A DNA stretch of 64,000 nucleotides from an uncultured Gemmatimonadales bacterium. Lineage in GTDB: Bacteria; Gemmatimonadota; Gemmatimonadetes; Gemmatimonadales; Gemmatimonadaceae. The notes beneath the pieces are model-generated. The model ran no database searches. It saw only the letters and a program-made list of their open reading frames with translations, and was not told the origin of the DNA. The stretch spans positions 928,001 to 992,000 of the forward strand of contig CAWBZV010000003.1 in assembly GCA_963793305.1 (NCBI GenBank), in the 5' to 3' direction. Numbering within the stretch: position 1 is the stretch's first letter; every line of letters begins with the position of its first letter. Below, piece after piece: positions 3,269 to 7,933 of the stretch. A program made the position numbers and the translations under genes.

Positions 3269-3648
3269 AGCAGAACGTTCCGTTAACCATCGCCTCTCTC
3301 CTCTCGACCCTCTTGTTCACGCTTCACCTGACGGACGACATCGTCCGGGGCATGGAGCCAGGGACGCTTTCAAGCCTGATTGCGCTGCCCATTCTTGCCG
3401 TCCAGCTGTACGGAACGCTGGCGCTGGCCGGAAAGCGATCTGGGTACGTCATCATCCTCCTCGCGTCGCTCCTTGAATTGGTCGTCCCCGTCGTCCACAT
3501 GAAGGGGGCGGGAGTCGGCGGAGCGATCGCCAACTCCAACGGAGCCTTCTTCTTTATCTGGACGCTCCTCGCGCTCGGCGTGACCGCTCTCTTCTCCGTC
3601 ATCCTCTCGGCGCGCGGGCTGTGGGAGCATGTGCCACGGCGGTCGTGA
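3265..3648 (+). CDS. Small 4-TM membrane protein
   Basis: ATGA overlap with the MocR stop; MKQNVPLTIASLLSTLL..., four hydrophobic segments. Confidence 0.75.
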   Translation: MKQNVPLTIASLLSTLLFTLHLTDDIVRGMEPGTLSSLIALPILAVQLYGTLALAGKRSGYVIILLASLLELVVPVVHMKGAGVGGAIANSNGAFFFIWTLLALGVTALFSVILSARGLWEHVPRRS

Positions 3649-3726
3649 GCCATATGTCAGGATTCGGCCCCAAACTGTCAGACATGTGCCCTGGCGACCC
3701 GTCGAGATACGCAGAGTTTCTATAGT

Positions 3727-6099
3727 GTGCGCCCGAGCAAAGCGGACCTCTCGATTGCATCGATCGCCCACGGGATGGCGCCCGGTTGGCTCTTCCCCAC
3801 CGAGTGGCTCATCTGGCCGCCGGACACGTTCGCGCTGACCTCCACGATCCTGCGACAGACCGGCTGTTACCGGCATGTCGTCACGAGTGACCGGGGCCAC
3901 CGCGACGGATGGCAAGATCACGTCGAGTCCTGCGCGAAAACCTGGCTGAGTCGACTCAATGCGGTGCTCGCCGATCCCGCGGAGGCCGCGCACGATGCGC
4001 CCAACCGGGCGAGTCTCGCCCAGGTGCCCGGCATCCGGGCGCGCATCAAAGAACTGCGCCAACTGGCGCCAACCGTGCCGATCGAGGACCTCTGCACGCT
4101 CGAGAGTGAGAACGCTCGGCGGCTGGCCGAGATCCTGCTGGAAATTCACGCGGTTGCCGACACCGCGTGCGCCGGGTTCGGCCTGCCGTCATCGCCTCAA
4201 GAGAACGTGGCGCTCGTGCACTGTCTCGCCAATCTCTTGTTGACGGCCCGCGGGTCCCTCTCCCGCATCGCCAAACACTTTGGCGTCGTCCTGCCCAAGC
4301 TCCGCACCCCGCAAAGCGGTCTCACGCTGCGGTCGCTCGCGCACCATGTCACGCTGCACACATCCGAAGTCGAAGTCATGTGGCGGGCCGTGCCTTGGCC
4401 GAACGTCGAGGAGAATACCATCAACATCCTCATTGTGCCGTGGCCCCTGACACTCCACGAGGCGAGTTTTTGTGCGAAGCCGGAGACCTTCGAGTCCGTG
4501 CGGTACTTCGCCTACACGCCCGCGGAAGCACACGAGAGCGCGTGCATCGAGCGCACGTGTGAGCTCGTGAAGCGATTGCACGAACAGGTCGGCCGCGTCC
4601 ACATGGTGGCCTTTCCCGAATTGGCGTTTTCGGAGAATGGCTACATCGAGTTGCTGCACCGCTTGCAACACGCGCGCGACCCGCAGGGTCCCGACAGCCT
4701 GCGACAAGTGCCAATGATCCTCACCGGCATCGCGAACGGTCGTCAGGAGGCCGCCGACGGAACGACCACGCCATCGCAGAATGAGGTCCGACTGGCGACG
4801 TACTTTGCTGGACGCTGGTACGAGTGCGCACAACAGAAACACCATCGCTGGAAGATGGACCGCAACCAGGTGCGTCAGTATCAACTCGAAGGCCGACTGT
4901 CCACCGCTCGCGATTGGGTGGAACGGATCGATCTCGCGCAACGGCGCTTGACGTTCCTCGCGCCCACCGGTTGGCTGGCCCTCACGCCGTTGATCTGTGA
5001 AGACCTCGCCCAACTGGAACCCGTCTCCGATCTCATTCGCGGCGTCGGCCCGACGCTCCTCGTCGCGCTCTTGTTGGACGGTCCGCAGCTCAAGGAGCGA
5101 TGGTCCGCGCGATACGCCGGCGTGTTTGCCGACGATCCCGGCACCGCCGTGTTGACGGTCACCGCGCTCGGCATGGCCGAGCGATCACGAAAGCACGGCA
5201 CGGACGGTGGACACGGCAACCGAACGGCCGCGCTGTGGAAGGACCAGCTGACGGGGTGGCAAACCTTCGACATTCCCCCGGATGCCGGCGCATTACTGCT
5301 CACGATCTCGGCATCGTGGCGGGAGGAGTTCACGGCGGACGGACGGTCCGACTACAAGAACGCGTCGGTGTTTTCGTTCGAGGGGGTGAGATTTCAGCCG
5401 TTCTCGACGGAGGATCGCGCCGGCGCGTCGGCCGGTACGACGGAGCGTCCGATCCGTTCGCTGGACCCGGATCAACGACAACGCCTCCTGGCGAGTTGGG
5501 CCGACATCCGCGAGTTGACCGCCGCGACATTCGCGCTCGACGCACTGATTGAGCTCCGCGGACGCCACCGCAACCGGATTCGCGCGTGGCTCCTGGGGCG
5601 GTCGCAGCCACAGTGGGAGGCGTCGGCGCCGGAACCGATCAGAGAAATCGTGCGCCTGTTGCGCACCGCGCAGGTCGACCCGGCCAGAGCCGGCGTCAAA
5701 GCGCGCCAGGACGTGTGGCCTACGCCGGCGCTCGAGACCGGTGCGGATTACATCGCCCAATTATTCGATGAGATCGGAAGTCGCAAGCTGCCCGAGTCAT
5801 CGCATCAATACTGGCGCGTCCTGTTCAACGTCACGCTCCAGGCGCTCGAGAAGCAGCGGCAAGAAGGCGATGATCGCGGCGTCGACGACCACAAGGAATG
5901 GGAACGCCGGCGCGCGATCCGGGCGGTGCTCGTCATGACGCTCGTCGCGCTCCACTCCCGGGTCGACGCGGTACGCCGCCGGCCACTGGCGACGCATGCG
6001 CTGCGGGGGCGGCGTGGATCAGCGGATCAGTTCCTCACCCGGGACATCGCGCGGTTGCTGCGAGATCTCGAACGAGAGATCGAGAAGTACGCGTACTGA
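3727..6099 (+). CDS. Large protein with central carbon-nitrogen hydrolase (nitrilase-like) domain
   Basis: 790-aa ORF; VAFPELAF (Glu), QQKHHRW (Lys) and LICEDLA (Cys) in nitrilase order. Flanking regions not recognised; start uncertain. Confidence 0.75.
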   Translation: MRPSKADLSIASIAHGMAPGWLFPTEWLIWPPDTFALTSTILRQTGCYRHVVTSDRGHRDGWQDHVESCAKTWLSRLNAVLADPAEAAHDAPNRASLAQVPGIRARIKELRQLAPTVPIEDLCTLESENARRLAEILLEIHAVADTACAGFGLPSSPQENVALVHCLANLLLTARGSLSRIAKHFGVVLPKLRTPQSGLTLRSLAHHVTLHTSEVEVMWRAVPWPNVEENTINILIVPWPLTLHEASFCAKPETFESVRYFAYTPAEAHESACIERTCELVKRLHEQVGRVHMVAFPELAFSENGYIELLHRLQHARDPQGPDSLRQVPMILTGIANGRQEAADGTTTPSQNEVRLATYFAGRWYECAQQKHHRWKMDRNQVRQYQLEGRLSTARDWVERIDLAQRRLTFLAPTGWLALTPLICEDLAQLEPVSDLIRGVGPTLLVALLLDGPQLKERWSARYAGVFADDPGTAVLTVTALGMAERSRKHGTDGGHGNRTAALWKDQLTGWQTFDIPPDAGALLLTISASWREEFTADGRSDYKNASVFSFEGVRFQPFSTEDRAGASAGTTERPIRSLDPDQRQRLLASWADIRELTAATFALDALIELRGRHRNRIRAWLLGRSQPQWEASAPEPIREIVRLLRTAQVDPARAGVKARQDVWPTPALETGADYIAQLFDEIGSRKLPESSHQYWRVLFNVTLQALEKQRQEGDDRGVDDHKEWERRRAIRAVLVMTLVALHSRVDAVRRRPLATHALRGRRGSADQFLTRDIARLLRDLEREIEKYAY

Positions 6100-6105
6100 T
6101 GATGG

Positions 6106-6860
6106 CTAGCCTGGCGACGGCGTCGGACAGTCGGTCGCTCCCGCCCAGAAAAAATTGCCATCGTTGTCGCGATACCAGTGGGCGTTGCCATGCACGCTCT
6201 GACCGTTGCTGGTCCAACCGCCGAACGCCAGGTCGGTCCCTGAGTCGGCGGTCCGCACAATGGTCGCCGCGGTGGTCGGCGCGGCGCGACGGACGTTGAG
6301 CGCCGAGGAATGGTGTGCACGGCGCCCGGCTTCGCAACGAATGCGTAGCTGGCAATGGACTGCACCCCTTGTTGGGCGAGCATGATCACGTGATCGAGGT
6401 CGACGCCATCGCCTGGGCAAAATGGCTTGAGCGAGTAGATCTCGTGGTGACCAATGATGTGCTGACGATCGAGCGCGATGCCCCATCGATTGGCGGCGGC
6501 CGCCACGAGGCTGGCGCTCGCGGCATACATGTCGTCCGTCCATGCGACACCGCTCTGCCCTTCGTGCTCGATCCCGATCGTATACCAGTTCGGGTTCACG
6601 CCGGGTCGGAGCAACGGCCAGGTGGGTGCGTTGACCCGCCCCGCGTGCCAGGCGGTGTCGCCTTCGCCGACGTACTGATGGACACTGCCATCTTTGCCGA
6701 CGCCGTAGTGAGCGGACACCTGGGACTTGACCGCGTCAAACCACGAGTCGGTGTCTGCCAGGGTTCCCTGCATGATGTGGATGACGATGGCCAGGGGCTG
6801 ATATCCCTGTCGCCCTTTCGCAAAATTCGGACTCCCGATCCACTGGATGCTTCCCGGCAT
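6106..6860 (-). CDS. N-acetylmuramoyl-L-alanine amidase (Amidase_2) with C-terminal SH3b-like domain; frameshift near 6310
   Basis: IVIHIMQG, VSAHYGV, AWHAG, TIGIEHEG, IIGHHEI..CPG motifs; the C-terminal LNVR..PTTAATIV...GNAHWY continues in another frame. Confidence 0.85.
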
Positions 6861-6866
6861 CACAGG

Positions 6867-7682
6867 TTACCCCTGAGCGCCGGAGAGGGATCTCGAGCCG
6901 TTGACGACGCCGTCGTCGCCTCGCTCACCGCTATCGGGGCTTGCGTCTCCGGCGCCATTGTTCGCGGTCGCCGGTGGGACCACCGGTGTTGGCGTCACCG
7001 ATGTCGGTGCGACGGCGTGCTGCGGCGCGGCATCATTGCCCGGTTCCGCTTTGGTAAACAGTGTCTCGGCGACTTGTTGCAGCTTGAGCGTCGCGGGCGT
7101 GCTGAACATGCCCACCAGCACGGCGACGGCGGCGATGCCGAACGCGCTCGTGTCGCTCACCGCCGCCGACGGCGAAATCAGGCCGCCGCGGAGGACCACG
7201 TAGAACGCCAGGGCGAGGATGCTCCCGATCAGTGGCAACATGACGTAATACGGCAGCCAACTGCGCTTGAGGGCGCGATTCCCAATGTACCACCCCAATG
7301 AGCGCAGGCCATGCAGTAAACCGCCCAGCGCGCCGCAAATGACGACGATCGCGAGCAGCCGGTGTTCGGCCCACAGTACGAATGACGTCCCGAACAGCGT
7401 GACGCAGGTTGGATCCAGCGTGGAATCAGGCAAAACGCGCGGCGTGATTGTCGTATCGCACCGGAGCGGTGCCCCGCTGGTGAGCGACGCGGCCGCTCCG
7501 GGCGGTTTGTGCGGCCAAACGGCGACGCAGACGTAGAGCATGAGACCGCCGAGCACCGCAAGGACGATCGCGGATACCACCGTTCCGAGCGGGCCAACGG
7601 ATCGGTGAGCGGGATCGACTGGCGGCGCCGGGGGGACGGCCGGTGTCGGGGAGTTCGGAATTGAATTAGCAGGAGTCGTCAT
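6867..7682 (-). CDS. Multi-TM membrane protein of unknown function
   Basis: About 4 hydrophobic helices; GALGGLLHGLRSL..YIGNR..SW..YY..P motif; ends 6 bp before the amidase start. Confidence 0.75.
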   Translation of the reverse strand: MTTPANSIPNSPTPAVPPAPPVDPAHRSVGPLGTVVSAIVLAVLGGLMLYVCVAVWPHKPPGAAASLTSGAPLRCDTTITPRVLPDSTLDPTCVTLFGTSFVLWAEHRLLAIVVICGALGGLLHGLRSLGWYIGNRALKRSWLPYYVMLPLIGSILALAFYVVLRGGLISPSAAVSDTSAFGIAAVAVLVGMFSTPATLKLQQVAETLFTKAEPGNDAAPQHAVAPTSVTPTPVVPPATANNGAGDASPDSGERGDDGVVNGSRSLSGAQG

Positions 7683-7933
7683 GGTGGCCTTGGGTCGGAC
7701 TCAATAGCTATGGCGCTTCTTGGCGCCGGCAAGGTCACCTCTGTGACATCAACATGCACAATTCTGCCAGCGACACGGCAATCGTTCGCGACCGCCATCG
7801 CTATCGTACGTCATAGTCGTGTGGTCTCTGAATCGCACGCACGCCGTCGGCGCGATGCGTCGCCTGATTGGCTCGAGCCTTGACTTTGCGGCGACAGTGC
7901 TGAAATATCAGCATACTCGGCTCAAGGAGAAAT

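Follow-up and report, generated by a model that had tools for sequence, protein, structure and literature searches.

The window, the whole 64,000-nucleotide stretch of DNA from an uncultured Gemmatimonadales bacterium that was analysed, carries a gene that raises the question of what a protein with a nitrilase domain between two further large domains does for its host. The open reading frame was confirmed as a real gene coding for 790 residues, and the host genome holds a single copy of this long form. Its GTG start is backed by a WPPD motif that lies 29-30 residues in, both in the window protein and in six of nine close homologues; one homologue, P0002, is 93% identical and was called from a downstream ATG. 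No promoter-like site, meaningful repeats or terminators were seen around the gene. The motifs quoted in an earlier note on this DNA were all found in the product, where FPE, QQKHH and LICEDL supply the nitrilase triad (E298, K371 and C424). The absence of a signal peptide claimed there was borne out by a hydropathy scan, which gave a highest 19-residue value of 1.48, a value of 0.81 near the N-terminus and no transmembrane helix. The protein matched no family in Pfam, NCBIfam or PADLOC and no PDB sequence, and an alignment of its family retrieved only designed helical proteins from the PDB sequences. An AlphaFold2 model, with 100 homologues in the alignment, reached a pLDDT of 91.5 and a pTM of 0.93.

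Table 1. Features of the nitrilase gene, of the cassette around it and of the cargo found in its place in a related genome. Residue counts refer to an alignment of 390 rows, with gapped rows left out and near-duplicates included.
Feature	Position	Strand	Basis or remark
Long-form nitrilase-module gene	3727..6099	+	790-aa fused protein, GTG start
N-terminal, mostly helical domain, aa 1-228	3727..4410	+	common to every architecture
Divergent nitrilase (C-N hydrolase) domain, aa 229-548	4411..5370	+	structure and profile comparison
Catalytic Glu298, FPE motif	4618..4620	+	388/388 aligned rows
Catalytic Lys371, KHHRW motif	4837..4839	+	389/389 aligned rows
Glu399, probable fourth tetrad residue	4921..4923	+	position and invariance, 390/390 rows
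Nucleophile Cys424, CEDL motif	4996..4998	+	390/390 aligned rows
C-terminal all-helical domain, aa 581-790	5467..6096	+	probable fused counterpart of relatives' downstream partner gene
Variable cassette: nitrilase gene, convergent Amidase_2 and membrane-protein genes	3635..7790	.	plastic slot
Amidase_2 gene	6027-6863	-	Pfam E 2.5e-26; C-terminus changes frame
Membrane protein gene	6867-7682	-	no Pfam family
Alternative cargo in G001	L290:2006-6183 (G001:C96)	.	557-aa SduA_C protein, kinase, PIN-like gene pair

In VIA, residues ~229-548 of the model matched yeast Nit2 (4h5u) with the best Z-score, 17.9 (rmsd 4.2, 246 aligned residues, 13% identity), and the top 24 rows all belong to the nitrilase superfamily. 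Foldseek agreed on the nitrilase fold (E 8.5e-6), and the best match in a viral structure library was a phage C-N hydrolase (E 3e-3). The three triad residues are in register with the triad columns of both ordinary and DRT nitrilase profiles. The modelled fold and this register together place the window protein in the nitrilase (C-N hydrolase) superfamily. E399 probably completes a catalytic tetrad with E298, K371 and C424, and the invariance of these residues indicates that the nitrilase domain is catalytically intact. Further invariant residues include K191, R202, H372, H373, R458, R462 and R540.

The N-terminal domain has its own set of invariant residues (W30, F35, Y48, W73, D145, G152, P190, K191, G198 and R202) and, folded alone, gave a pLDDT of 89.7 and a pTM of 0.89. 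No structural match to it was found among 48,161 representative chains in VIA (best Z 3.6), and the Foldseek check proposed in the earlier note returned no match with an E-value under 0.86. As modelled, this domain has no structural match, which is not proof of a new fold.

The C-terminal region is helical, as had been claimed, but was measured at ~210 aa after a flexible linker rather than ~230 aa. Its nature is suggested by relatives of the window protein, which come in two architectures. The long form has ~790 aa; the short form of ~550 aa consists of the N-terminal domain and the nitrilase and ends there, with a helical ORF of 75-100 aa directly downstream. This small gene often overlaps the enzyme stop codon. 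An HMM of this partner, seeded from 23 genome loci, was run on 164 loci in all six frames, without any filter for position, and its first round alone gave 95 matches. The partner was directly downstream of the enzyme or fused to it in 75 of 80 metagenome loci, and in three of the other five the contig ends within 90 bases of the gene. Among genome loci, this main partner was found in 30 of 42 short-form loci and in none of 36 long-form loci. Nine of the remaining 12 short-form loci are myxobacterial and have a different partner of 105-140 aa, which is on the opposite strand in two of them. Gammaproteobacterial members have a third partner type of 88-108 aa that overlaps the enzyme stop codon. 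Fusions of the main partner with the enzyme occur in seven loci, at two separate places on the family tree. No recognisable partner was found at L068, L180 and L189 or beside the Sinorhizobium and Bradyrhizobium plasmid copies. On Agrobacterium plasmids, convergent acidic ORFs of 48-56 aa lie directly after the nitrilase gene (L294:8668-8838 and L299:8666-8812); the two are alike (E 4e-5) and are a possible fourth partner type.

The myxobacterial partner aligned with the long-form C-terminal domain in HHalign (85%, E 5.9e-6, 34 columns), and the global score of this pair, 16.7, was reached by none of 50 shuffles. For the main (Acidobacterial) partner, 8 of 25 and 10 of 25 shuffles attained the global score against the C-terminal domain and the local score was barely above the shuffle maximum; homology is not significant. 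Nor did the gammaproteobacterial partner show significant similarity to this domain or to the other partners. A likeness between the first helices of the partners, seen by eye, was set aside as non-evidence. Sequence comparison indicates that the C-terminal domain of the window protein corresponds to a partner gene which has been joined to the enzyme here and stands on its own in other clades. The description of the gene as stand-alone therefore holds for the long-form clade, but elsewhere the C-terminal domain is a separate gene. Since nine partners scanned with Pfam had no family, they appear to lack a helix-turn-helix (HTH), and an ESM Atlas search with one partner gave no usable match. Mean column identity is 21% in the partners versus 38% in the enzyme. 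Two tightly linked units, with the partner translationally coupled or fused, have the layout of a type II or fused toxin-antitoxin system.

The family is large, unannotated and spread across phyla. It accounted for 1,225 of 8,000 candidate proteins, has 2,468 representatives at 50% identity and occurs in 313 stretches of GTDB genomes, 79 of which were read as loci. Its hosts include Bacteroidota, Acidobacteriota, Myxococcota, Chloroflexota, Gemmatimonadota and Planctomycetota, together with a gammaproteobacterial branch in Vibrio, Aeromonas and enterobacteria, and almost all of its members are named 'hypothetical'. In a quick, midpoint-rooted tree of 104 rows, which left out three quarters of the unfused metagenome rows, the long forms fall into a single clade (SH-aLRT 99), which joins the split forms of the myxobacteria (98), and the phyla are intermixed. 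The distribution is patchy: the gene is in none of 60 relatives, five of the same genus among them, and 17 of 5,426 E. coli genomes have a match. Two family genes stand in tandem at L027:9869-16138, and G341 and G358 each have two copies at separate places. No description of the family was found in the literature searched, the scope of which stopped short of subscription papers and bioRxiv supplements. The accessions of the E. coli W pair (below) were absent from this literature and from the DefensePredictor supplements. The terms searched for do not occur in the accessible main text of PMC13092281, PMC13069673 and PMC13586616, and the accessible parts of 10.1101/2022.07.19.500537, 10.64898/2026.09.30.754977 and 10.1101/2024.10.26.620412 give no account of it.

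The surroundings of the window gene were examined along with those of its homologues. In a genome of the same genus (G001), both flanks of the slot are present at 93-94% identity with other cargo between them. This cargo includes a 557-aa protein whose N-terminal part is long and of unknown kind and whose C-terminus is an SduA_C (Shedu) domain (E 1.6e-16), a 280-aa Ser/Thr kinase and a PIN/ribbon-helix-helix-like gene pair that was judged by eye. The Amidase_2 and membrane-protein genes of the window cassette look like passengers, and such companions are common to none of the 79 homologue loci. In a related strain (run X4), the membrane-protein gene goes along with those for the nitrilase and the amidase in the 3635-7790 cassette. 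Contigs of three runs are without two bases at 6308, in the Amidase_2 gene, so its change of frame in the window may stem from faulty assembly. None of the eight neighbour genes in the window matched PADLOC, and none is a reverse transcriptase (RT).

A homologue in E. coli W is 28% identical, has intact tetrad motifs and is paired with an 88-aa partner (WP_000776118.1 and WP_001291041.1). The pair lies in an integrase island at tRNA-Leu, which comprises a WYL regulator, type I RM, the pair, a 5'-nucleotidase, a phosphorothioate-dependent endonuclease and the integrase; the same island in a second E. coli strain does not count as an independent case. The 5'-nucleotidase gene is directly 3' of the pair on the same strand (L302:14036-15001), and it could either join the pair in depleting nucleotides or serve defence on its own. 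Only four viral contigs carry a family gene, in one case between Q and lysis genes and in another beside a P2-like integrase (phage genes named by eye), and none of the GenBank phages does. Among 12 plasmid records with a family gene, the seven annotated ones were read: four adjoin defence or toxin-antitoxin-type genes (cyclase-E2-TIR, a DGQHR cluster, a P-loop NTPase and VapBC) and three have no defence neighbours. The Methylorubrum plasmid copy is split by an IS21 element (L297:6896-11297), with its 3' part beyond. A pair of S8 peptidase and metallo-beta-lactamase genes adjoins the nitrilase gene both on this plasmid (L297:2893-6033) and in a Saprospiraceae genome (L023:12507-15678); the two pairs are 38% identical, and the metallo-beta-lactamase matches LmuA/Avs1a profiles. 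In two Bacteroidota (L007:12680-16495 and L020:5158-9107), three-gene units of an HD-CE or metallophosphoesterase protein, an ORC-CDC6-like ATPase and a triple-CARF-profile protein lie beside the nitrilase gene. Neighbours at genome loci include CBASS, CARF trios, DpdJ, a Lamassu-like locus (adjoining L053) and, in two of 78 loci, RT genes that belong to UG10-large and UG9 systems (adjoining L019 and L033). Most family loci sit among ordinary genes.

The association with defence genes was assessed by setting the nearest genes, at most five per locus, against groups of five at 60 remote sites in the same host genomes, using a gene caller that misses some atypical genes. PADLOC at E 1e-20 showed no enrichment (20 of 78 loci versus 13 of 60 controls, p 0.69; by gene, 27 of 291 neighbours versus 15 of 265), and neither did near-full-length PADLOC matches (8 of 78 versus 4 of 60, p 0.55). 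Pfam conflict or mobile domains, from a list fixed after the neighbours were seen and before the control, occurred in 9 of 20 matched long-form genomes versus 1 of 20 controls (Fisher and McNemar p 0.008), the matched control being of long forms only. Over all loci the figures were 21 of 69 versus 1 of 24 (p 0.01), in a scan that took in 274 of 301 neighbours. Since the PADLOC result is null, the Pfam list post hoc, the scan partial and the gene caller incomplete, the association is moderate and not settled. The check on defence-island association that the earlier note proposed gave a mixed picture: the Pfam comparison and the E. coli W island speak for it, PADLOC does not. All-versus-all clustering of the neighbours in the 79 loci revealed no conserved third gene, and a metabolic operon was rejected on this ground; conserved metabolic operons, which the earlier note had said would speak against a conflict role, were looked for in these loci and none was found.

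Nitrilases as conflict effectors are already known, and we compared the family with those of known conflict systems. According to the accessible parts of PMC9226505, PMC13275509 and PMC13436386, the nitrilases of the UG/Abi RTs in class 3 comprise those of DRT1 (UG1), UG5/DRT11 and UG6. As far as the available text of PMC13275509 goes, the nitrilase of DRT1 acts as the toxic effector, a C-terminal lid holds it in an autoinhibited state, and its activity is bound up with DNA synthesis and the formation of filaments. The part of the PMC13092281 supplement that we could access lists CN_hydrolase for Lamassu-Fam LmuA_effector_Amidase, and the accessible portion of bioRxiv 10.64898/2026.10.19.760177 presents C-N hydrolase toxins in predicted ParA-linked ternary toxin-antitoxin systems. 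An architecture with a partner split off in some clades and fused in others is undescribed in the literature searched.

The resemblance to DRT nitrilases proved weak. DRT nitrilase HMMs gave weak matches in 4 of 15 relatives (best E 2.8e-6). In HHalign, the family aligned about equally with 13 DRT-type sequences (94%, score 60), a set from which true DRT1 is absent since the Drt1a profile matched none of 251 genomes and no control, and with 34 ordinary nitrilases (93%, score 57); DRT-type and ordinary nitrilases aligned with each other at 97% (score 74). By subgroup, UG5-like sequences reached 93% versus at most 35% for any ordinary subgroup, and the family HMM matched UG5-like sequences at E 4e-6 to 2e-5 versus E >=0.2 for the four ordinary nitrilases that the host genome also encodes. 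The UG29 C-terminus did not align with the family. The lack of an RT in the window was substantiated and extends to the host genome, which is 92% complete and has no PF00078 match, and a search of longer proteins for fusions of the family found none to an RT. LmuB gave only a partial profile match on contig C2 and none beside the window gene. The window protein has no CTD-family Pfam domain. The ABC-3C domain CTD3 occurs in 14% of the members of one ESM Atlas neighbour cluster, and no ParA family was found among the 274 Pfam-scanned neighbours. Since there is no RT in the genome, no RT fusion and no LmuB nearby, the window gene is not a DRT or Lamassu member; nor is it a ParA-ternary member. 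By analogy, its product may nevertheless work like a defence nitrilase.

The window protein is the one-piece form of an enzyme whose small partner is encoded by a gene of its own in other clades, also in an E. coli defence island, and for this reason we favor an RT-free, nitrilase-based anti-phage amidohydrolase toxin whose fused subunit restrains it, in effect a toxin that probably carries its own brake. We give this full reading about an even chance, and consider a defence role of some kind quite probable. A conflict or anti-phage role was the proposal of the earlier note. It is in keeping with the patchy spread, the Shedu-domain swap, the island in E. coli, the presence on prophages and plasmids and the Pfam comparison, but not with PADLOC. 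The module would be of the abortive-infection type. Its nitrilase would be the toxic effector and hydrolyse a C-N bond of an essential amide- or amine-bearing metabolite, probably a phosphorylated or anionic one of the NAD+/nucleotide type, as the invariant lysine, arginine and histidine residues outside the tetrad suggest. The helical unit would bind and restrain the nitrilase, in cis in the long-form clade, like a toxin and antitoxin in one chain. This unit might be displaced, or the N-terminal domain acted on, by a phage protein or by the stress of infection, and the cell would arrest after the release.

Several observations weigh against the restrained-toxin reading. Most loci are among ordinary genes, PADLOC shows no enrichment (none of eight neighbours in the window), and viral carriage is limited to the four contigs. 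The main and gammaproteobacterial partners are not significantly like the C-terminal domain, no partner could be recognised for several members, and a required subunit would account for repeated fusion just as an antitoxin would. The helical unit could then be an active-site lid, an oligomer scaffold or a phage-protein receptor, with the enzyme off when alone. We regard such an anti-phage module with a required subunit or sensor as unlikely, although it shares the defence-context evidence and accounts for near-obligate linkage and repeated fusion. It also has a precedent in DRT1, where residues at the C-terminus block the active site as well as completing it (in the available text of PMC13275509), and the partner diverges fast beside a conserved enzyme, as sensors often do. 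Fast divergence, small size and translational coupling fit antitoxins too, however, and some members have no detectable partner. A mobile, non-defence amidohydrolase of soil bacteria, accessory to catabolism or detoxification and equipped with a small structural subunit, would explain the mostly ordinary neighbours, the PADLOC result, the three plasmid loci without defence genes and a profile about as near to ordinary nitrilases as to DRT ones. We find it rather unlikely, as no metabolic, transport or regulatory neighbour is conserved in 79 loci, the host already has four ordinary nitrilases, and it is at odds with the E. coli W island and with the Shedu-domain swap at the same slot.

It is very improbable that the gene is an orphan part of DRT1/UG5/UG6, of Lamassu (LmuA) or of a ParA-linked toxin with its components elsewhere. 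The weak DRT-nitrilase HMM matches, the UG5-like E-values, CTD3 in the Atlas cluster and the RTs and Lamassu-like locus adjoining three family loci would fit this. Yet the genome has no RT, the family has no RT fusion, the partial LmuB match is on another contig, and the systems adjoining L019, L033 and L053 are complete in themselves and differ from locus to locus. In its boldest form, the restrained-toxin reading makes the family an undescribed cross-phylum anti-phage system with an N-terminal domain of new fold, a nitrilase toxin and interchangeable helical inhibitors fused at least three times, which would act without RT, SMC or NTPase on the same metabolite as DRT1, the window gene being a one-gene sensor-toxin-antitoxin. 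We put this forward tentatively and would sooner doubt than assert it.

If the restrained-toxin reading holds, the family would be an RT-free defence-nitrilase candidate with an invariant active site. Its partner can be separated from it, a one-gene fusion occurs naturally and the laboratory strain E. coli W has a copy, so toxicity, rescue and metabolomics are directly testable. It would offer a simple route to what defence nitrilases destroy; the paper on the structure of DRT1 (PMC13275509) itself states their substrate as an open question. About 2,500 clusters now called 'hypothetical' would also receive a name, and a domain without match among the representative structures would be added.

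With DRT1, UG5 and UG6 the family shares a divergent nitrilase fold, intact catalytic residues, a probable defence context and a putative toxic effector under C-terminal restraint. It differs from them in having no fused or adjacent RT and in its unique N-terminal domain and small helical partner. The Lamassu LmuA amidase likewise combines a C-N hydrolase domain and a further domain at its C-terminus, in a defence role that for the window protein is a proposed one, but the window gene has no LmuB or LmuC alongside and no CTD-family Pfam match. In the ParA-linked ternary systems a C-N hydrolase is also the proposed toxin and is accompanied by a small antitoxin gene, but the window family has no conserved ParA-sensor gene and its partners have no HTH family, a distinction drawn from the accessible part of their description (section 24). 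The metabolic nitrilases (Nit2, AmiF and the glutaminase domain of NAD synthetase) have the same fold, the E-K-C(-E) residues and Z-scores of 14-18, whereas the window protein is 8-16% identical to them, has no PF00795 match, carries ~450 extra residues and belongs to no metabolic operon. CapRel is a fused toxin-antitoxin protein. Its enzyme and partner folds are unrelated to those of the window family, in which inhibition is a prediction, but in both the inhibitory or putatively inhibitory unit is either a separate gene or fused at the C-terminus of the enzyme.
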